Counted from the stretch's first letter, positions 13,186-64,000 are shown. The stretch: 64,000 nt of DNA from Craspedostauros australis (GCA_030167865.1 JALAGF010002141.1:1-64000); one strand, 5' to 3'. Program-made: numbers and translations. Notes: generated by a model not told the origin, from the sequence alone.

Positions 13186-16100
13186 CTAGCGACGAGGCTT
13201 GCGACCTCGTCCTCGCCGTGAAGGAGGCAGTTCGCGCGCAGGCGGGGGCATGACACGCCTGCCGCCCTGCGGTTGATCTCTGTTCATGTTGGGCCCATCG
13301 TTGCCACGTGCCACACCGCCACCGGTACGCTGCCGTTTGGAGCTGCGGCCGTCGGGCGGTCCATCGCCGCGAGGTGCGCTGTTGCCGGCGATGTTGCTGT
13401 TGCCGTTGTTGCTTGGCGATGGTGGTCTGGAGCGCTTGCCGCTTCTTCCGTTGCCATCGTGGCCGTCGCCACCGCGAGGACCATCGTTCCCGGTCCAACG
13501 ATGCCCCATGCTGCGTCCTTCATCGTTGTTGTTGTTGCTGCTGTTGTTGCCAGGGCCATCCGGATTGCTGTTGCCCGGCACTCTTCCTCTGCGCAAGTTC
13601 CTGCCGGAATCCTCCGATCTCGAGGGAGGCTCGCTGGCCTTACCGTCGTCCATACCACGTCGATCACCACCCTGCCGCGAGGCGCGACCACCTGATCTTT
13701 GGTCTCTCTCTCGTTCTCTGTCGCGATCACGATCCCGTTCCCATTGTCGGTCACGGTCGCGATCACGGTCACGTCCCCGATCTCTGTCCCAATCGCGTTC
13801 TCTGTCGCGATCGCGATCTCGGTCACGAGGGCGATCCCGGTCACGGTCACGATCTCTATCACGGTCCCTGTCTCTGAGACGATCTCTGTCACGATCTCGA
13901 TCGCGATCACGGTCGTCCCGGTCGCGTCCCCTGTCTCTTTCTCTGCTTGGCGATGGAGAGAGGTTGAACTTTTGCCCATCGCCGCCGCGCCCGCCATTTC
14001 GGACTTCGCCAGCCTCATTTCCGTAACCACCACTGCCACTTCTTGCTGAGTCATGTCGAGATCTGTCCTTGTCGTCATTGCGACGCAAGGAGCCGAGGTC
14101 ACGTTTTGCGCCACCGCCGCTGGTACTATCGTCCACAGCTGATCTGCTCGTTGGCCCTCCTCCCGACCGTCGCTCAGTCACACCTTGTCCGTTGTTGTTG
14201 GTAGTGATGCTACTGCTGGCGTTTCTTGATTCAGGGCGTCGCTTGGGATCATTGATCTCGGCCTTTGTGGCAGAACTGCTGGTCGCCCCTGCAGACTTGG
14301 TGTTGAGATTCCCATCCTTGCTGTTATCGTTGCTGTTGTTGGTGGTGGTGTCGACATCCATAGCTGCCGTCTCATCGGCGTTGCCGTCCACTGCCTCTGG
14401 AACTGTGCCCCACGCGCCTTGCTCGCCTGCCTTCTTGAGCATCGTGGTGTACGCGCTTGCTGATGTCTTCAGATCAGCGCGAACGCGAGCATCGCTTGTT
14501 TGGAATGGAGCTAGTGTATCTGTCAACAGATTCGCCATGTTTTCGCTTGTGGGGAAGGCACTCACGATTCGGGTCAGCACGAGCAGAGCAGCACGCGTGT
14601 GCATGTACTCCTTTGACTTGAGTGCGCTGATCAACGACTCGCCCAGAGTGTCATGCCACTGATCGTACAGCATGGAGAACTGCTCATGAGAGATGGAAAG
14701 CTGTTTGTCCTCGTCCTCCTTCTCGTTCCCGTTCGATGCTGTTGCGACGAACGATCCGGGCTTGTTGGCCACTTCTTGTTCGTAGGCATCTTCATCTTGC
14801 TTCCAATCCTTAAGCTTCCTCCAGATCTCCAAAATGAAGATGGCCACGATAGCGGCTTCGCCTTCTGTCAATCCGTACAATGCGCCCTTCAGCGCAGTAA
14901 CGAATGAGTTGATGCAATGGATGATACTGAAACCAGGAGTTTCGATTTCGTGCAAAAGAAAGATGAATTTCGCGGAGTACATGGCGTTGGCAGGGCTCTG
15001 CAGACTTCGCGGGAAGACGCAGTGCGAAAAGAAAGTGGAAGCGGATGCACCGAGATCTGGTCCGCAAAAGAATCCACCCTTCGAGGTCTTCAAATCACGA
15101 ACGATGGAATCGATGTGCGCCTTCTGGTTTTTCAGGTCACCCTCGAGTTTGGCCAGGGTGCGCTTCGTTCGGTCGATCTCGGCTACTTCATTTCTGGCTT
15201 CTGAAGAACCTGCGGGCGCAGCTTTTGTGTTCCTTTGGCGTTGGAGCCGATCGATTTCCTTTCGGAATCTGCTGATCTCCACTTCGTAGACGTATTCGGG
15301 GTGGTAGATGTCGTAAAGGCTGTGATTCATGAAGCGTTCCAACAGGTCGATGGAGATGCACGACCACAGGGTCTCTGGCAAACGTGCTTCGTACACGGAG
15401 CGGACGCTTTCCGTCAGTTCAAAGCGCTTCGTGCTCTCGTCGACTTCTCCATCGTCATTCACGTATGTGGCCGCGTTGATCAATGGACGGCAAAGCATCC
15501 AGCTTGTCATGACCCCAAATCCGTAGTCTGAGCACAGCTCCTCCATCGTCGGCATCTTCTGCCATATCTTGGTGGTCTTGCCATTCGTTGCGTCGTCGGC
15601 TGGCTCGGCCGCCTTGCCTCCGTGGGATCCGCCTGTCAAGCATTCGAGCAAGATCGTCAGGACTATTTGGCACGTGTCGTGGAGGTTGCCGAGCAATTTC
15701 AATGGGCGTTTCTCGTTGTCTTCGTCGACCTCAAAAAGGAGTCGATTTCGGGCTTTGGCGACCAGGATGAGCATGAGCACGCCGATACCTTCGCCGTCCA
15801 GGACGTCTTTGATTTGTTTCACTGCGACGTTGTTCACGCGCTCCACGACTCCAAAGGACATTGTCTCGCGTTGCAAGAGCCTGGATCCGCCGCCGCCATC
15901 GAGCTGGGTGGTGGACAAGGATTCAGCCGGCGAGTAGTCCACGTACGACAGCGCGCCTGGTTTCTTCAGCAGAACGCGAAGGATGCCAAGCTCCATGACC
16001 GACCCTTCCCGCAGACGTTGCATGAGGTAGCTGAGCAAGCCTCTGAATTCCACGAACGGATTCTTTTGGTAGAAGGCTCCGCAGAATGATTCCAGCGATT

Positions 16101-53081: not shown

Positions 53082-56000
53082 ATGGACGGTGGCACAGGCA
53101 GCGAAGAGATGGATATTGGTATGAATAACGCAAATGCACAACCGAAAGCCGATGCGATGGACGTCGACAACACAAAGAATACTGGGGAAGCATCCTTGGG
53201 ACTGCCGGCATCGACATCGAGACTCACGGAACCTGCTGCCAAGCAACCGACGCAATTCCAAATGGGATTGCCGCCAAAGAACAACACAACAGAGCGCAAA
53301 CGCAAGTTGGGTGCATCGTCTGCTGATACAAACACTGAAATCTATAATACCGTGCCCAGCAAGGTTCACTCTGGCAGAAATTGCAATAAGCTTTCCACTT
53401 CTTCCCCATCTGATTTGGAAGAGGATGATCGGCATCACCAAAGGAGGCAACAACTCAATCAGCTCAATTTGCAAAATCTCGACAGCTCCCATCATCAGCA
53501 TCATCAGCAGCAGCAACAAAGCGCACTCAAGAAACCGTTCATGGCCCAAAAGAGCAATTTCAAACCAACCCAAGATGTAAGCCAGACAAAGCGACCCAAA
53601 GGCAATCCATTGGATAATGATCATACTGGCGACGGTGACGGTGATGGCAATAGTAGCGCTGATCATGGCGGTGTTGCTGCCAATGGCCGTGTCGGCGCTG
53701 GCAACTTTCGCAACAATCGGCTTCATGCTCCAAATCCACCAGCTTCTGCAATCACGCCATCCACTCCGTCCGAGCTCGCTCTGTCTTTCACTCCTCCGAC
53801 GCTTAATGGTGGCAACATGAGGCCGGGTGCGGGTGCGTCAGTCCATGCGCAGCGGCAACTTCATCCCACAACGAAAGGGCCACAATCGCAGCTGCATGCA
53901 CATCCGCACCCACACAGCCGGGCGGGGGCCAACCCTCTCGCCACGGAGGCACCATCAACGGAGAGCCAGGCGGAAGGCTGGAGGGTCAAGCTCTATAGAC
54001 TCAATGGGAATGGTTCGTGGGATGACTGCGGCACGGGGCGCATCCACTGCATGTACAAGCAATCGTCGTCCTCATCTTCGTCATTACCAACGACGAAGAA
54101 GGATAAAGATGCCATGTTCGAAAAAGACAAGGAAGATCTCAAGTACATGGGAGACGATGCGCCCATCTACAAGCAGCTGGGCGAACCGACTCTCTGTATG
54201 CAATCAGAATTCTTCCCTCCAACCACACCAGCCATGCCAACCGCAGCAGGTACGCAGTCACCATCATCCGATACCAATGCACCGCCGATACCCTCATCCA
54301 TATCATCACCGGCGGCACCATCCTTACCGTTAACAAGCACAATGGCACAACAGCGTAATTCAGCCAGCGGCGCAAGTTCTCAGGTCACCCTGGGACTTCC
54401 AACCGGTGCATCCACACCCGCACTGCCGGTAGCAACATCCGATCCAACCACATCATCCGATTCAGTGTCAACAACAACAGCGACCGCGACAACGACAACG
54501 ACGACAACCACGACTCCGCCAACACCAACAGGAACACAAACAGCTGATGCAGCAGCAACGCCAACGCCAACGTCAACAACTGAGGCGGACTCAAAGCAGA
54601 ACAGCACAACACGGATTTTGCTGCGAACGAGGATACTGCTGAGGGGGATGTATCAGCGACAAGGGGAAAACATCATCACGTGGCGTGAACCGTACATGAA
54701 CGAAGCCAATCCAGCCTCAAAGGGCGTGGATCTAGCCTTGTCCTTCCAGGAGGTTTCTGGCTGCATGAACATATGGAAGCAGATCAGGAGTGTCCAATTG
54801 AGGGCGGAAGAAATGAGCCGTGCGGATGGGGGCAATCCGCACGCACGACAGAATGGCGTTGGACCCAGCACTGGTAATCCTCCCAACAACAACAGCGACA
54901 CCAACAGCGGGGGCATGCGTGGCGGTATCGTGTTTGGCTCTGGTGCGGGAATCACAAGCGAAATGATAGATCATCGCCAGCATCACCATCAGCAGCAGCA
55001 GCAGCACCAGCCGCAACATCATCATCAGCAACGCAATCCTCCATTGAAGGGGCCTCGCCATGCTCGTGGCGTACCGATCGTCCACGGTGTGCCGAATGTC
55101 ATGAACGGCGCCCCCATCAACGACCATCAGAACAAGCAGGATGTGTGGATGAACATTGGGCCATCGCCGACCACCTCCTCGCCATCGCCACCCGTGCCAC
55201 CTCCTGGATCTGGAGCGCCAGGGACAGCCGGCGATGGTCCGCATCATCAGTTTCCGCCAAACCTCTCCCATCATCAGCAACCCCTTTCACACCAGCAATC
55301 ACTGTCACATCAACATCAACTGCAGCAACAGCACCCGCTGCATATGAATCACCAAAATCCGATGCTCAATCACCCGCATCAAGACGATTTCGAAACTGCG
55401 GTCGGTGGCCTCGTGGGAGGGTACCATGAAGGTCCCATGGAACAGGGTCCGCAATTGCCCAATCCACCATCGCTGGGGAATTTGGAGGAAATCGCCGACA
55501 GGATAGCCGCGGTGCAGGTGCGTTGGAAGCAACAGTACTATTCTCGATCTGGGTCCTGACTTTGTCTGTATGCAGCTGTGACTCGTTGGCATTGCGGTCC
55601 CGCGGCTGGCACTCGTATTGGCGCTGCCTTTGAAATTGGACTAGACATCGTGATGGTGGTACTTGTGCTTCATTTCATTTTCTTGCATCTCTCCGTCTTC
55701 TCGATGAATGAATGAAGGAATGAATGAATCAGCTCATTTCATGTCACCTTGCACAACCCTTGTGCTACGTAGCGGTAGTGACATGCTTCAACTGATTGGA
55801 ATATCTCCTCTCGCTCACTCATCCATCATCGTCATCATCATCTTCTCCTTTGACTGCTCTGCCTATCGCTATTGTCGCGATTCAAACGCACACTCTATAT
55901 TCCGCGGTATGCACTGTTGCGGTTTATCCTTTGCTGTCGTTTTTGTACCCATGCTCATGGAACGAACAGCACATGCAACAAAGGGAGTCGTTCTCCATGT

Positions 56001-58834
56001 ACATCTCGCAGAACGATTGCTCGTACCTGAAGTCGCTGCTCTCGCTCTTCCCATCTGCCGAAGCACGTGAGGATTACAAGTCGTTGGCAACTCTCGCAGC
56101 CTGCGTCAAGACCATACTGCTGCTCAATGATCCGTCCATCATCGATCTCATCGTTAATGACGAATTGATCTTCGAAGAGATCTGCGCCACCATGGAGTAC
56201 GATCCCGACTTGAGAGACAAGGCCAATCACCGTTGGTTCTTGCGGGAGCGCGTGAAGTTCCGCACGGTGGTGCTGATGAAGGATGAAGATTTGATAAGTG
56301 CCATACACAGGTCGTTCCGGGTGAACTTTCTGCGAGATACACTGTTGCGCCCAACGATGGACGAAAACAGTTTGTCGACGCTGTCTTCGTTGCAAACTTT
56401 CACCCATAGCGATGTCGTCAAGGGCGTCACGGTATCACATCAGCAGAACGGGGGTACTGGTTTCTTGCGCGGCAGTTACATTGAGCAGGTGATCAAGGTT
56501 CTGAAACACGAAGTCGACGTGGTGTGCAGGAAGGAATGGCGGGCGTTGGAAGGCCGGGAAACTCGGGCGGCAATCAAAAGGGCGATCGAACGCAGCGAGG
56601 ACGATATTCCTCTCGATACTTCCACGGTCGTGTCTTCGGGCACATACCTTCAGGCCAAGGAAAAGCTGAGCATATGGAAGCAGCATCTCGCACCTCAGGA
56701 TGGATCCTTGCATTCCCGCAAGGCCAGGCGCCGAGGCTGCTTGTCGTTCCTGCGTGAATTGTTCAGCATGGTGCGAACGTCGCTGCAGCAGACAGACAAG
56801 GAAGACTTTTTCCGCGCAATCGTCACGATGAACATCGACGTCACGATGGGGCCAGCGCAGCCAAATCAATGGAGTGATAAGCGGGGGAACGACAATGGCA
56901 CGATCGGCGGCAGCAACCACAGCGCAAGCAGGGACAGCAGGGGTGGGGGTATCGGCGTTGGCGTCGGTGCCCAAGCCAGGATTCCGACCAACTACGATCA
57001 AGATGATGAGGAGGTGCGCGATGAGAACGCGACCAGCCAGATTCGTTTGCTGTCGTTGCTCGCAACAGTGCTGTCCGACCCGAACATCGATGTCACCGAG
57101 AAGGGGGCTGCGCTCGAGATTATCGGCGGTATTGCCACGCATGATCCAAGCCTCGTGCGTGGTCATTGCAACGAGTACTTCCAGTCGTTGGAAACGCACG
57201 GATTGGGCATGAAGGGGAGACCAGCGCGACCGAGACCGAACTGGAACCGGCAGGTCATCTTCCATTGCCGCTCGGATGACCTCCTCGCGGCGTTGCTGTA
57301 TCTGCTGGCCATCGAAACCGATGCTGGCGTCCTCCTGCCAGTCTCCGAGATCCTTCGCACGGTGCTCGACACTGACATGATCGGCGATCACGGACCGTTC
57401 GGCGGTGGCTTCGCAGACGAGGCAGAGGGCATGCCCGCAGGATCCCATCAGTCGCCGTTGGATCATCATCACATGCACCCGCACACGGGGGGAACAACCA
57501 ACATGGATCAGAAGAAGTTCCTGAACATGTTCTACGATCACTACATCGAGTGGCTCGCCGCGCCGTTTCAGCATACCATTCTACGAACGGTGCGACGCGT
57601 TCCAAACCGCGCGCATGCCTCGCCGTCGAGCTCCAAGCTGTACCAGTCGGTGTTGGAGAGCTTCGACAAGGGGAGCATCGCGGAGGAGCCGCTTCTCCGG
57701 TCGATCCAGCCATGTGCCATCAGAAGTTCGTTCGGGGTGGACCTGCTGAGCTTCTGCGTTCGAGTGCATGTGTATCGAATGAAGACGTACCTGCTGCGGT
57801 CGGCGGTTCTATCAAACGTCCTCAAACTTCTGCGGCCGTCCGCTGATGACAAGAGCACGTCTGGCGATCGATGCCTCAAGCTGGCGTCGTTGCGCTTTCT
57901 GAGATCGGTGCTGTTCGTCAAGGACGACTCGTACCACCGTCACATCATCCAACAAAATCTTTTCGAGCCTGTGTTTCAGTCGTTCCGTGCAAACCCAATC
58001 GGCGACAACCTGGTGTCGTCCGCCATCGTGGAGATGTGCGACTTCATCCACAGCGAGAATGTGAAGGTGCTCATCGAGCATATCGTCACGAAGCACCTGT
58101 CGACGAGGGACGATGAGCAGCTGCAGCCGAGCCTCGAGGATGTGTCGAGTCCTTACGTCACGACGTTGACCGTGCTTCGCAAGGCATACGAGATGAACAA
58201 GCAGGGACTTGACGATGATGGTCCTGGCGGAGTCGGCCAGGGGTTCTTTGGTGACACCCATACTCAGTTGTCGAAGCCGCCAACAGGCCAAACATTGTTG
58301 GAGCTGGATGCGAAGGCCCGAGAGGATCAGGTGAGCATGTATCGTCGTCGATCGTTGGTTGTTGTCGTTGGGTGTGTGTATGTCGATTCCTTTCACCCCA
58401 TACGAGCATGGCATCATATTGGACCATCTACGATATCGTTCAGGACTTGCTTTGGTTTGCTTTGTTTTGTTTCGGTTGGTTTGCACGAGTACGAGTACAA
58501 GGACGAGGGCTGTTCCACATTGACTCATTTTTCTCATACGATGTTGCAACATGCACACTGAACACAACTCAACGTTTCCCACCTACAATTGTGCTCTGCA
58601 TAAAAAACGTTCTTCGTCAATCATCCGCAGCGCAAATTCCGAGAGATTGATCATGAGGAGTCTTACTTCGATTCAGACGATGATGACGGTCCGCCACCAT
58701 CGATCGAGCACCCACACACCCAAGGCGGCAGCCTGTCACGATCGCCGTCCTTCCTCTCCGGTTTTCATGCCCAAATGAGCATGGCTGGAACCAGCAGCAG
58801 CGACGACGACGATGATCTTGTCACCGCACCGTGA
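53082..58834 (+). CDS. PPP4R3: Protein phosphatase 4 regulatory subunit 3 (SMEK/Psy2), 3 exons (53082-55517, 55970-58330, 58631-58834)
   Basis: EVH1 motifs WRVKLYRLN..GSWDDCGTG, YQRQGENIITW and DLALSFQEVSGC..IW. SMK-1/ARM region EYDP...HR.FL, IHRSFRVNFLRD, LLSFCV and NLVSSAIVEM. Terminal exon EESYFDSDDDD. Both introns are phase 0. Confidence 0.92.
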
Positions 58835-60091: not shown

Positions 60092-63000
60092 ATGTCCCGC
60101 AGCGACACCTCGAAGTTCCCGTTCGTGGTGGATTATGCGAAGAGCGGCAGGTCCACATGCAACACCGCCAAGCGCCCCATCCCCAAGGGAGCGTTGCGGA
60201 TTGGGGTGATGGTGAAGAGCCCTCACTTCGACGGCTTCCAACCCAACTGGAGCAGGGCCAGCACCTTCTTCGGTTCCGGCAAGAAGATCGGAAAGAAGCC
60301 CGGCTCAACGGATGAGATTGGAGGATTCGACGATCTGCGCCCCAAGGATCAGGCCCAGGTAGAGGAGTACATCGTTAAGTACGCGCCCGATCAGGAACGC
60401 AAGGACCCCAACGAGATCGCCGAAGTCAAGAAGGTGCGCGATCAAGCGGAGCTGGTTTGGAAGCTTCGCGATTGCACCACCAACAAGCCCACCGCAATCG
60501 CCGTCAAGATCGTCAAGACCATCCTCGAAGCCAACGACATCCCTGCATCCAAGGGCATCAGCCCGGTGGATTTGATCCGCATGCTGGCGGAGGCCATCGT
60601 ATTCGGCGTCGCAACGCCAGGCAACAAGGAGGAAGGGTGCTGCGCAAGCCGTCCGCTGCGCTTCTCGACCTACTACTGCAGGTACGTCTGCCAGGCCACT
60701 TTGGAATGGGGACAGTGTCCCTACAGCCAGGCCGTGGATGACACCACCTGCTCTCCCATCGAGATCCCTGAAGAAGTCAAGACGAAGCAAGCCAAGTGGT
60801 ACAAGGCCATCAAGAAGGTGTTGGAGATGAAGGATGATGACGACTCCTTCGCTCCTCAGAAGCGCCTCTTCCTCGCCAAGAAGAATCTGCCCACACCGCC
60901 GCACGTGGAGCAGAAGGACAAGAAGCCCAAGGGCGTCACTGCCACGCCCAAGCAGGTCCGCGTGGGCGCCTCCAAGCTGCATTTGAGCAGAGCCCGCCTC
61001 GACCCTGAATCGGGGCTGGACAGCGGCTACCACGTCCTCGACGAAGCCTACACGATGATGAAGGGCAAGAAGGCCGCAGGAGACTCCGGGCGTCCGGATC
61101 CCAAGGAATCGTTCCCAGTCGAGCTCTACGATGCCATCCTGTGCCGCACGGATCTATCGACGGGAACGAACTCGCAGTACAAGTTGCAGATCCTGGTGCC
61201 AGACGGTCAGGCGAGGCCTGGCCACTGCTACCTGTGGCGCGTGTGGGGTCGCGTTGGAGGCACTGGCGGAGGTGGCAACAAGCTTGAGAAATTCAACACG
61301 CTCAAGCAGGCCAAGCAAGAGTTCTGCGAGCTGTACGAGAAACGCACAGGAAACGAGTGGAAGGACCGTAAATCTTTCGTGAAGCATCCTGGCAAGTTCT
61401 TCCAGCTGGAGATCTCACACGGAGAAGAGGACAAGAAGGCCGGCAGCGCGGATGGCAGCAGCATCGTGATCGGCGATCCCAATTCCAAGCTGCCACGTCG
61501 TCTGCACCCCGTCATTGCTTCCATCTTCGACAAGAACATCGCGGCGCAACAGCTGCTGCGGGTCAACTTCGACGCGTCCAAGATGCCGTTGGGCAACATG
61601 ACCGAAGCGCAGTTGCGCGATGCCTACTCCGTCCTCACGAAGATCGAGAAGATCCTGAATCCGCAGCAAGCAACTGCAGCCGCATCCACAGCAAGTGCAA
61701 ACGCGAGTACAAGCGGAAGCGGAAGCGCAGCCGCTCCGAGCAGCCCCACGTCGGATGCCATGAAGAAGGGCAAGCTGCAGCAGCTGTCAAATCAGTTCTA
61801 CTCCAAGTGCCCCAGCACGGACCCCAAGATGATCGACACCATGTCAGTGCTCAAGGAGAAGGTCGAGATGGTGGACGAGCTGATCAACTTGCAAGCATCC
61901 AACAAAGTGATGAAGGACGACGTCAAGCACGATGACGTGAAGTCGCCGATGGATGAGGCCTACGAGAAGCTCAACACGAAGCTGGCACCCATGGATCCGC
62001 ACGGCAAGGAGTACGCGATGCTGAAGAAGTACGTGGAGAACACGAGGAACGCGACCGCCGAAGGCGTCAGCGGTTGGGGTGGCAACGACTGGGGAAGTCG
62101 CGGCCTGCGCTTGCTGGACGTTTTCGAGGTGGAACGCGAGGGAGAGGCGCCAAGATTCGAATCGTCCAAGGCGCTTGGCAACAGACGGTTGCTCTGGCAC
62201 GGAAGCCGCATCAGTAACTACAGCGGTATCCTCAGCCAAGGATTGCGCATCGCGCCACCGGAGGCACCTGTGAGTGGTTACAGGTTCGGCAAGGGTATCT
62301 ACTTCGCCGATATGCTCGGCAAGAGCGCGAACTATTGCCGCACCAACGGATCGTCCGAGATGCTCGTGATGGCGTGCGACGTCAGTTTGGGCAAGGCATT
62401 CGAGACTCCCCATGATATGTACATGGACAAACCGCAGAAGGGCACCAACTCCACTCACGCATTGTCCGAAATCATCCCAGACCCAGACACCTATGAAGAG
62501 ATCCAAGATGACCCCAAGGAAGACAACACGATGGACGATACCAATATGGTGAAGGTCCCGTTGGGGAAACCCATCAAGTCCTCCCTTGCGTCGCAACCGA
62601 GCTGCGATGTGAGCGAATTCATCGTGTACGACATCGGCCAAGTCAACATTCGGTACCTCTTGCGTCTGACAACGAGCGATGAAACTGTCGCAGCAGACGA
62701 TGCAGAAGCCGAAGACGAGGTGGAGAACGAAGCCGACGCCAAAGCCAAACCCGCCAGTGACGCCAACGACGACAATGGTGACGACGCAAAGCCTGCTGCG
62801 AAGAAATCGCCGCCGAAACCATCAACAAAAGTACCTGCAACCGCAACCGCCACTTCCACCCCCATTGCTGCCAAGGCTGCGCCTGCGCCTTCTCCCAAGC
62901 GGAAGCGTGCACCCAAGAAACCAAAAGCAGCTGCTGCGGCTGCAGCGCCCAAGTCGCCCACTAAAAGCGGCGGCGCCAAGAGCAAAGCGAAGCCCGCAAG

Positions 63001-64000
63001 CAAGCGCGCCAAAATGGCCCACGTGCCTGCAACCGCTTCTGCTCCTGCATCGGCCAAAAGCTCCATGAGCAAGTCTTCCACCACTAAGGCCTCCACCACC
63101 GCCAAGAGCCCCACCGCCAAAAGCTCCAACGCCAAGACCCCCAAGAAGGCAGTGACACCTCCTTCATTCATCGCACTGGAGAAGGAAGACACTTCCGTGC
63201 CATCGCTCTCAGGCGAGAAAGTGATCGAAAGCCTGACATTTGAAGGTGGTCTGCGCATCACGCTTGTCAAGGGTGACGTCGTGGAGTCCAAGACTGATGC
63301 AATTGCTGTATCATGCGATGACAAGCTGCAGCCATTGGGTGCAATTGGTACACGTGTGAAGGCGGCAGCTGGGCCCGACTTTGTGGCCGAGATTGATGCG
63401 CTGGTGCCTCCACCACCTAGTCCAACCGTGGCACCAGTCGTCGTCAGAACCAGCCCTCCCGACACCAAGCTCCCAGCCAACTTCAAGAGGATCTACAGCG
63501 GCCCAACCGCAGACACAATCCGCAATGTCATCATGGATGCTGACGAAGAGTGGGAGGATATGTTCTACCTCGTCGAGCAGACGGAGAAGTTGTCTTCCAA
63601 CGACGAAATCGTTTGCATCGAAGCCGATGGCACCTTCCGCAAGGGCGAGGAGGCGAGGAAGTTGCTGGGAGTCGGACATAAGCGCAACGAACACATCACC
63701 ATGAAGCAAATCCCAACAGGCGCGGAAGTGTACGTCCAAAGCAGCCCGCATCGGCGCATCAAGCCGCGCACGCCAATCCTTTTGGAACAGCTGATGCCCA
63801 TGTCAGATGATGAAGATGACGCTGCTGCTGCTGCTACCACCGCCACTCCTGCTGATGCTAGCACAGCTCCAGCCGTGGCGCCTGCGGTCGCAACCGCATC
63901 TGCGCCTGCATCTGCAGCACCACCGAAAACAACCGCGGCGTCCAAACCAGCAGCTCCCGCCAAGCCACTTGATTTGAAGATGACAGACGTCCACGCACTG
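60092..64000 (+). CDS. PARP1-like poly(ADP-ribose) polymerase with C-terminal basic linker and macrodomain, 3' partial (at least 1303 aa)
   Basis: Own translation; no stop before the window end. zf-PARP-like VDYAKSGRSTC...SPHFDG, PADR1, WGR (61244), regulatory domain KMPLG..LSNQFYS. Catalytic LLWHGS (His 62198), GIYFAD (Tyr 62300) and SEFIVY (Glu 62615). Then a K/A/P linker and macro-like ITLVKGDVVESKTDAIAV. Confidence 0.93.
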   Translation, partial: MSRSDTSKFPFVVDYAKSGRSTCNTAKRPIPKGALRIGVMVKSPHFDGFQPNWSRASTFFGSGKKIGKKPGSTDEIGGFDDLRPKDQAQVEEYIVKYAPDQERKDPNEIAEVKKVRDQAELVWKLRDCTTNKPTAIAVKIVKTILEANDIPASKGISPVDLIRMLAEAIVFGVATPGNKEEGCCASRPLRFSTYYCRYVCQATLEWGQCPYSQAVDDTTCSPIEIPEEVKTKQAKWYKAIKKVLEMKDDDDSFAPQKRLFLAKKNLPTPPHVEQKDKKPKGVTATPKQVRVGASKLHLSRARLDPESGLDSGYHVLDEAYTMMKGKKAAGDSGRPDPKESFPVELYDAILCRTDLSTGTNSQYKLQILVPDGQARPGHCYLWRVWGRVGGTGGGGNKLEKFNTLKQAKQEFCELYEKRTGNEWKDRKSFVKHPGKFFQLEISHGEEDKKAGSADGSSIVIGDPNSKLPRRLHPVIASIFDKNIAAQQLLRVNFDASKMPLGNMTEAQLRDAYSVLTKIEKILNPQQATAAASTASANASTSGSGSAAAPSSPTSDAMKKGKLQQLSNQFYSKCPSTDPKMIDTMSVLKEKVEMVDELINLQASNKVMKDDVKHDDVKSPMDEAYEKLNTKLAPMDPHGKEYAMLKKYVENTRNATAEGVSGWGGNDWGSRGLRLLDVFEVEREGEAPRFESSKALGNRRLLWHGSRISNYSGILSQGLRIAPPEAPVSGYRFGKGIYFADMLGKSANYCRTNGSSEMLVMACDVSLGKAFETPHDMYMDKPQKGTNSTHALSEIIPDPDTYEEIQDDPKEDNTMDDTNMVKVPLGKPIKSSLASQPSCDVSEFIVYDIGQVNIRYLLRLTTSDETVAADDAEAEDEVENEADAKAKPASDANDDNGDDAKPAAKKSPPKPSTKVPATATATSTPIAAKAAPAPSPKRKRAPKKPKAAAAAAAPKSPTKSGGAKSKAKPASKRAKMAHVPATASAPASAKSSMSKSSTTKASTTAKSPTAKSSNAKTPKKAVTPPSFIALEKEDTSVPSLSGEKVIESLTFEGGLRITLVKGDVVESKTDAIAVSCDDKLQPLGAIGTRVKAAAGPDFVAEIDALVPPPPSPTVAPVVVRTSPPDTKLPANFKRIYSGPTADTIRNVIMDADEEWEDMFYLVEQTEKLSSNDEIVCIEADGTFRKGEEARKLLGVGHKRNEHITMKQIPTGAEVYVQSSPHRRIKPRTPILLEQLMPMSDDEDDAAAAATTATPADASTAPAVAPAVATASAPASAAPPKTTAASKPAAPAKPLDLKMTDVHAL

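Follow-up and report, generated by a model that had tools for sequence, protein, structure and literature searches.

The 64,000-nt stretch of Craspedostauros australis DNA analysed here (GCA_030167865.1, JALAGF010002141.1:1-64000; referred to throughout as the window) ends in a gene that, judged by homology, encodes a PARP1-type (clade 1) poly(ADP-ribose) polymerase (PARP) core fused to a C-terminal macrodomain. We consider it reasonably likely that this one gene combines a PARP1-type enzyme activated by DNA breaks, a linker, and a macrodomain of the macroH2A type that is split by a second domain, which we call X; by its residue patterns, the enzyme is probably a reader of its own product. The fusion of a PARP to a macrodomain had been proposed in a preliminary description of the locus, and relatives bear it out: 3 of 26 full-length homologs (P0002, P0003 and P0004) have the same PARP1 core together with a Pfam Macro domain (52-76 bits). 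P0002, a protein of 1,298 residues from Seminavis robusta, is 46% identical across 95% of the query.

The assignment of the core rests on domain order, profile scores and conserved residues (coordinates in Table 1). The WGR, regulatory (PARP_reg) and catalytic (PARP) domains each score above their Pfam cutoffs, and the order of the zf-PARP, PADR1/Zn3, WGR, helical and catalytic domains is that of PARP1 (human structures 9mi8 and 4opx). As in PARP1, the catalytic triad is H-Y-E: H703, Y737 and E842 are invariant in a four-protein alignment and lie in a region that aligns to human PARP1. Sequence matches to PARP1 chains in the Protein Data Bank (PDB) have E-values down to 2e-107. In the PADR1/Zn3 region, PADR1_N (residues 110-172) scores 20.6 bits, under its Pfam cutoff of 25.7 bits, and Cys183, 184, 200, 209 and 220 are invariant in the same alignment. 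The Pfam scan and the invariant columns thus agree with the PADR1, WGR, regulatory and catalytic domains and the intact triad of the preliminary description, which had also placed the end of the catalytic domain near 62670; the Pfam PARP match ends at base 62668.

The N-terminal domain had been called zinc-finger-like, and this holds in part. Pfam recognises a zf-PARP domain, but three of the four zinc ligands are gone: C24, H53 and C56 of human PARP1 are replaced by A, R and T. R36 and F46, the equivalents of the DNA-contact residues R34 and F44, are retained. Six of 19 aligned PARP1 homologs, namely the window protein and P0002-P0006, have lost the same ligands; the other 13 keep the CxxC...HxxC pattern. 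On this alignment, the domain looks like a zinc-free form of the DNA-break finger. It is also the only domain of its type, since Pfam finds neither a second zf-PARP nor a BRCT domain in the window protein at E≤1, in agreement with the preliminary description. The window protein differs from PARP1 in these respects and, further, in continuing for ~440 or more residues beyond the catalytic domain, through the linker, the macrodomain and X.

Macrodomains and PARP catalytic domains are known to share one chain in PARP9, PARP14 and PARP15, which belong to clade 3, and in that respect the window protein is like them. However, in the passages of Citarelli 2010 (PMC2964712) that deal with domain composition, clade 3 macro-PARPs have macrodomains N-terminal of a catalytic domain of the mono-ADP-ribosyltransferase type and are without WGR, regulatory domain or PADR1, and the lists for clade 1 PARPs include no Macro. 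The window macrodomain, by contrast, is C-terminal, and WGR and regulatory domains are present. The contrast with macro-PARPs drawn in the preliminary description therefore agrees with those passages.

The macrodomain of the window protein is discontinuous. It had been thought to occupy 63220-64000, an extent that had to be abandoned: only 63167-63406 matches the family, and 63467-63799 is a different, inserted domain. We used a custom macro hidden Markov model (HMM) of 215 positions, made from three contiguous macrodomains of relatives. The part matched in the window covers the lead-in strand, beta1-beta2, loop 1 and helix 1. The same HMM finds positions 3-83 and 85-212 in the Seminavis protein, separated by 147 residues, and the equivalent of the tether behind X is followed by positions 85-212. 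P0028 matches at positions 42-87 and 86-212, and the C-terminal part scores 164-170 bits in Seminavis and P0028. The same split form is found in both fragments, P0028 and P0029. P0003 and P0004 have an uninterrupted macrodomain (Pfam profile positions 1-117), and the Pfam Macro match of Seminavis covers positions 35-116 only, far C-terminal to its GLRLTVVKGD start. On the macroH2A1.1 chain 7ny6, the aligned halves of P0028 adjoin at residues 90 and 92; the insertion therefore lies in the loop between helix 1 and strand 3, and the fold loses nothing. General macrodomain topology would place this loop away from the ligand cleft.

Direct searches with the window tail returned little. With phmmer, the tail gave weak matches in the PDB over its first ~65 residues only, to the macrodomains of PARP14 (9e-5) and macroH2A1.1 (0.044). 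A word search using the tail against proteins of 716-2,281 residues found nothing at E≤0.01, the ESM Atlas held no usable match for the tail, and a single-sequence AlphaFold2 model of it was poor, with a predicted local distance difference test score (pLDDT) of 48.5.

The class of the macrodomain was determined with P0036 (contiguous and standalone) and P0028 as proxies for the window. Among PDB sequences, P0036 matched macroH2A1.1 best (1yd9, 1zr3 and 7ny6; 72-73 bits, E about 2e-19), with fusion-construct chains containing the same macroH2A1.1 domain at ~71 bits. A two-macrodomain chain of PARP14 (3vfq, 67 bits) and macroH2A1.2 (55 bits) were lower, and PARP14 macrodomain 1 alone (3q6z, 44 bits) and MacroD types (38-42 bits) lower still. 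P0028 likewise placed macroH2A1.1 chains first (E 3e-16). The likeness takes in the lead-in strand and loop 2, which reads PSIGSG(R/Q/A)AGY in the relatives and PSIGSGRNGF in macroH2A1.1. We conclude, by way of these proxy relatives, that the window macrodomain is of the macroH2A kind. The comparison with macroH2A made in the preliminary description is upheld, since macroH2A1.1 supplies the closest solved relatives of this macro family.

In a gap-free alignment, D1062 and G1083 of the window protein are invariant and stand at the positions of the macroH2A1.1 residues that contact ADP-ribose, D203 and G224, as we take these two residues to be numbered; their spacing agrees with the printed alignment. 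G1086 is also invariant among the four aligned proteins. Like the window protein, macroH2A1.1 has a basic, disordered linker ahead of its macrodomain, and its loop 2, GSGRxG(F/Y), is like that of the relatives. The two differ in what precedes the linker. Whereas macroH2A1.1 carries an H2A fold, the window protein has a PARP1 core (its N-terminal 860 residues) in cis, and the Pfam scan found no histone family in it. The window macrodomain differs, in addition, in being interrupted by X, in having Asp for Asn at the catalytic-Asn position, and in having Leu for G223. The sections of PMC6189284 concerned with the two proteins report that macroH2A1.1 binds and inhibits PARP1.

The same residues bear on whether the macrodomain would bind ADP-ribose or remove it. 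The relevant sections of PMC10470015 and of the preprint 10.64898/2026.08.12.744356 give four determinants of erasers: Asn as the catalytic residue, a His that holds the water, a loop rich in Gly and, in loop 2, an aromatic residue. In a gap-free alignment to PARP14 macrodomain 1, the window protein has Asp at the Asn, Pro at the water-holding His and L-G-A at the G-G-G, and the MacroD-type hydrolase signature (catalytic Asn and GGG loop) is not found in the window. Asp stands at the catalytic-Asn position (D1076 in the window) in all four PARP-macro proteins; the standalone P0036 has Gly there. According to the portions of 10.64898/2026.08.12.744356 that treat such substitutions, Asn-to-Asp mutants keep or gain affinity for ADP-ribose and lose hydrolysis: N140D in PARP9 macrodomain 1 raised the affinity about four-fold and removed most of the activity, and SARS-CoV-2 Mac1 N40D is cited as inactive. 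On a rival reading, the tail macrodomain is an eraser that removes mono-ADP-ribose from the enzyme itself by hydrolysis, or shortens the chains on it, and the protein would be a writer-eraser, as with PARP14 macrodomain 1. Macrodomain 1 of PARP14 and that of PARP9 are hydrolases within PARP proteins (PMC10470015, in its sections on these enzymes), the PARP14 two-macrodomain chain is the second-best group in the PDB, and P0003 has Asn at the first position of NAAN. Moreover, PARP9 N140D retains some removal of mono-ADP-ribose from protein, and a single substitution can turn on activity in a reader macrodomain (both from the same portions of 10.64898/2026.08.12.744356). However, besides the substitutions listed above, loop 2 of the orthologs, GSG(R/Q)AGY, resembles GSGRNGF of macroH2A1.1, which is counted in those sections of PMC10470015 among binding domains and not hydrolases. 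We consider an eraser unlikely, and the residue pattern favours a reader. This leaves the earlier proposal of a reader rather than an eraser plausible. The motifs on which it was built, AVSCD and LGAIG, had been named correctly, but the deciding position is the final D and not the whole motif.

The tail lies in the reading frame of the core. A single frame on the + strand, uninterrupted as the preliminary description had it, is open from 60044 to the end of the window (1,319 codons), where it runs off the 3′ end. Its earliest ATG, at 60092, leaves 1,303 codons to base 64000 and is the likely start, because the N-terminus of the window protein aligns with that of Seminavis P0002. The segment 63200-64000 was open in none of 5,000 shuffles, and the frame is therefore no chance product. 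GC at third codon positions reaches 0.79 in the PARP core and 0.76 in X, against 0.51 in upstream non-coding DNA; the linker is weaker, at 0.61. A 721-nt contig from a public run is identical to the window over 149 nt (63852-64000) and extends 572 nt beyond 64000; this extension should hold the remainder of the macrodomain. The last 39 bases of the window had no exact match among the metagenome contigs scanned.

A gene-model artefact would have the PARP end soon after 62670 at a stop made by splicing, with the tail a separate gene or low-T non-coding DNA. In its favour, the linker is poor in T (11%), shuffling left it open in 58 of 5,000 cases, other frames are nearly open there too, and the 721-nt contig leaves the PARP-macro junction uncovered. 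However, the conserved N-terminal part of the macrodomain and X both lie in the frame of the PARP, any intron must keep that frame, and a single protein combines a PARP C-terminus, a linker and a macrodomain in each of the three full-length relatives and in the fragment P0029. We regard such an artefact as very improbable.

All three elements that had been described behind the catalytic domain were found: an acidic patch, a linker rich in K/A/P/S and the stretch GGLRITLVKGD.... The basic linker consists of 21% K, 27% A, 16% P, 15% S and 11% T, has no D or E, carries a net charge of +29, and holds five S/T-P-x(0-2)-K/R motifs. Its earlier characterisation as H1-like is borne out by this composition, but not by domain content, since no Pfam family for the winged-helix domain of linker histone H1 was found in the window protein.

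Several observations weigh against our reading of this gene. Pfam matches no family in the window tail even at E≤10, and hence no Macro. Positions 85-212 of the macro HMM, which make up the C-terminal two thirds including loop 2, whose aromatic residue positions the distal ribose in MacroD-type hydrolases, are outside the window; going by orthologs only, this remainder should lie past 64000. Third-position GC is low in the N-terminal part of the macrodomain (0.51) and in the tether behind X, the last 200 bases (0.42). Coverage in public runs consists of the single 721-nt contig, of uncertain kind, at 63852-64000 only. The equivalent of macroH2A1.1 G223 is Leu in the window, by which ligand binding could be weakened. 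Readers and erasers may be only one residue apart, and motifs therefore cannot settle the activity. Finally, the linker is not conserved: those of the three orthologs are 52-83 residues long with net charges of -2 to +5. Being short and near-neutral, they indicate that the H1-like character, absent from all three, is lineage-specific and compositional only.

Some of these observations would also be expected if the macrodomain were a degenerate, non-binding remnant, or were truncated past the window, in which case the tail would serve only to scaffold the basic linker and X. The missing Pfam Macro match, the Leu at the G223 position, the location of the C-terminal part beyond the window, and the low third-position GC of the N-terminal part and of the tether all fit such a remnant, and at several motif positions none of the four copies diverges as much as that of the window. 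However, the N-terminal part scores 77.5 bits on the family HMM with D1062, G1083 and G1086 invariant, the same split form in Seminavis and P0028 retains a full and well-conserved C-terminal part (164-170 bits), and the frame is open to the end of the window (0/5,000 shuffles), with an identical contig running 572 nt on. We consider a remnant improbable, and we retain the reading of a PARP1-type enzyme with a split macrodomain of the macroH2A type.

Table 1 Features of the PARP-macro gene in the window, with residues of the encoded protein and positions counted from the first base of the window
Feature	Residues	Position	Strand	Basis or remark
PARP-macro gene, open reading frame		60092..64000	+	3′ open; C-terminus past window
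zf-PARP-like domain (Zn1 type)	14-94	60131..60373	+	Pfam, 56.2 bits
PADR1 / third zinc-finger region	110-220	60419..60751	+	PADR1_N; PDB alignment to PARP1 Zn3
WGR domain	346-429	61127..61378	+	Pfam, 54 bits
PARP_reg, regulatory (helical) domain	465-624	61484..61963	+	Pfam, 96.4 bits
PARP catalytic domain	639-859	62006..62668	+	Pfam, 180.6 bits
Acidic patch of linker	863-898 (36 aa)	62678..62785	+	net charge -14
Basic, H1-tail-like low-complexity linker	899-1024 (126 aa)	62786..63163	+	composition
Macrodomain, N-terminal part	1026-1105	63167..63406	+	custom macro HMM positions 3-82, 77.5 bits
Pro-rich tether ahead of insert	1106-1125	63407..63466	+	
Inserted domain X	1126-1236 (~111 aa)	63467..63799	+	X HMM, E 4e-43
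Acidic, then Ala/Pro-rich tether behind X	1237-1303	63800..64000	+	stops where macrodomain should restart

X is, on the evidence of profiles and a predicted structure, a real and independent domain without a name. Its conserved core is VQSxSxxR, and the window has one copy. The AlphaFold2 model, made from a 35-sequence alignment, is a compact alpha/beta domain (mean pLDDT 92.7, predicted TM-score 0.85). Domain collections did not identify it: 0 of 10 members matched any Pfam family at E≤0.01, NCBIfam had no family for X, the X of the window matched no PHROG family at E≤0.01, and an X profile run against PDB sequences found nothing under E 0.6. Nor did structure comparison: Foldseek against the PDB gave at least 500 matches, none at E≤0.001 (best TM about 0.2), VIA-align gave none at Z≥5 among 48,161 chains, and BFVD gave none at E≤0.001. 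The best structural match (Z 4.1) was to MoaD/ThiS/TGS/L23-like beta-grasp folds over ~50 residues, about half of the domain. The modelled X is thus without a convincing structural match, although a new fold is not thereby proven. A homodimer prediction scored 0.00, with the alignment unused and the fold uncertain in at least one run. In the ESM Atlas, X fell with unnamed bacterial clusters (best 0.93), other family rows being low-share or below 0.9. PADLOC had no match on X, only on HTH, ankyrin and BRCT parts. Pattern scans for X gave 11 pattern matches in genome contigs and 11 in viral contigs, none of which was confirmed.

Relatives of X are found well beyond PARPs. An exhaustive HMMER search at E≤0.001 returned 17 proteins, some matching the start of the macrodomain alone and some X alone. 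An X profile search returned 37 proteins among 7,999 candidates; by precomputed Pfam assignments, 14 of these have VWA, two BRCT, one is the PARP-macro protein P0003, and 20 have nothing named. The X HMM is present in 44 of 76 fetched proteins, with two copies in six. All seven X relatives that were scanned match the C-terminal ~100 positions (~234-343) of phrog_26613, at E-values from 6e-24 to 4e-4; these relatives, among them P0032 (6e-24) and P0056 (9e-22), align with the X of the window. Through shared relatives, X is thus probably homologous to the C-terminal module of phrog_26613 and of VWA-X proteins from phages and metagenomes. The VWA-X proteins place X behind VWA, whereas the window protein places it inside the macrodomain. 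Full-length VWA-X is present in 2 of 54 matched phage records. In Rhizobium phage RHph_I1_18 (5974-7077), the VWA-X gene directly follows genes for RNA ligase 2, a homing endonuclease, thymidylate synthase, DHFR and a deoxyribonucleotidase; this is a nucleotide-metabolism context and is uninformative on function.

Within the PARP-macro family, X occupies two places. In P0003 (residues 5-120) and P0004 (residues 1-68) it is N-terminal, ahead of the Zn1-like domain, whereas in the window protein, Seminavis, P0028 and P0029 it is inside the macrodomain. X has therefore been relocated within the gene family. Behind X, P0058 and P0062 have a long K/A-rich linker like an H1 tail and then a LigA-type BRCT domain, with ankyrin repeats in addition in P0062; this setting gives a hint of chromatin or DNA damage. 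Both look like eukaryotic proteins and are a second case of X adjoining a basic linker. In P0030, P0037, P0044, P0047, P0058 and P0062, X adjoins a conserved domain of ~150 residues (LIWND..DLDL...LDVDMN...EPVENIFW). This domain matches phrog_1735 and phrog_23228, families of unknown function, in P0047 and P0058; we presume a resemblance to YfaP/DUF2135, and Pfam gave no match for it.

Elsewhere in the window, many long open reading frames of single-exon appearance are found on both strands between positions 1 and 59000, for example at 55796-58561 (921 aa), 53082-55559 (825 aa) and 13186-16053 (955 aa). Their abundance is consistent with an intron-poor eukaryotic genome.

The architecture, homology and residue patterns suggest how such an enzyme might work. 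The Zn1-like, Zn3 and WGR modules would sense DNA breaks and so release the catalytic domain, and the enzyme would then ADP-ribosylate itself and its neighbours. The tethered macrodomain could bind ADP-ribose or the ends of poly(ADP-ribose) chains on the same or an adjacent molecule, and this binding by a reader may damp further use of NAD+, keep the enzyme at modified chromatin, or both. Such cis-regulation would parallel the binding and inhibition of PARP1 by macroH2A1.1 in trans in animals. The basic linker may contribute non-specific affinity for DNA or chromatin, and X may be an accessory module, possibly for targeting to DNA or chromatin. A bolder version, which we put forward tentatively and regard as rather doubtful, is that the protein is a self-contained writer-reader, that the partnership of a macroH2A-type macrodomain with PARP1 is older than, or independent of, the fusion of that macrodomain to H2A, and that X is an unnamed fold, common to phage VWA proteins and eukaryotic BRCT proteins, serving as a targeting module in DNA damage or chromatin.

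Full-text literature searches brought up no account of a macrodomain C-terminal to a PARP1-type core, although Supplementary Fig. 1e of Grau-Bové et al. may show the fusion; the word PARP is absent from the main text of that paper. The passages of Perina 2014 that concern diatoms mention them only as having or lacking PARP genes, and no such fusion is described there. The architecture is already in public databases, unremarked: the Seminavis protein is named "Poly [ADP-ribose] polymerase".

In animals, macroH2A1.1 restrains PARP1 and the nuclear use of NAD+ in trans. A cis fusion of PARP1 with a reader of the macroH2A type in diatoms would offer a simple system in which to relate a tethered reader to activation, chain growth and release, and it is relevant to how the macroH2A macrodomain arose. 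It also indicates that a macrodomain can be split by insertion of another domain, in a form that standard Pfam scans of the window miss entirely, and it brings to light X, a confidently folded but nameless domain common to phage, bacterial-type and eukaryotic proteins. If the bolder version is correct, the brake on PARP1 that animals carry on a histone is here built into the enzyme, a macrodomain tolerates a foreign domain in a surface loop, and X has moved between the N-terminus of the protein and the interior of the macrodomain in related diatoms.

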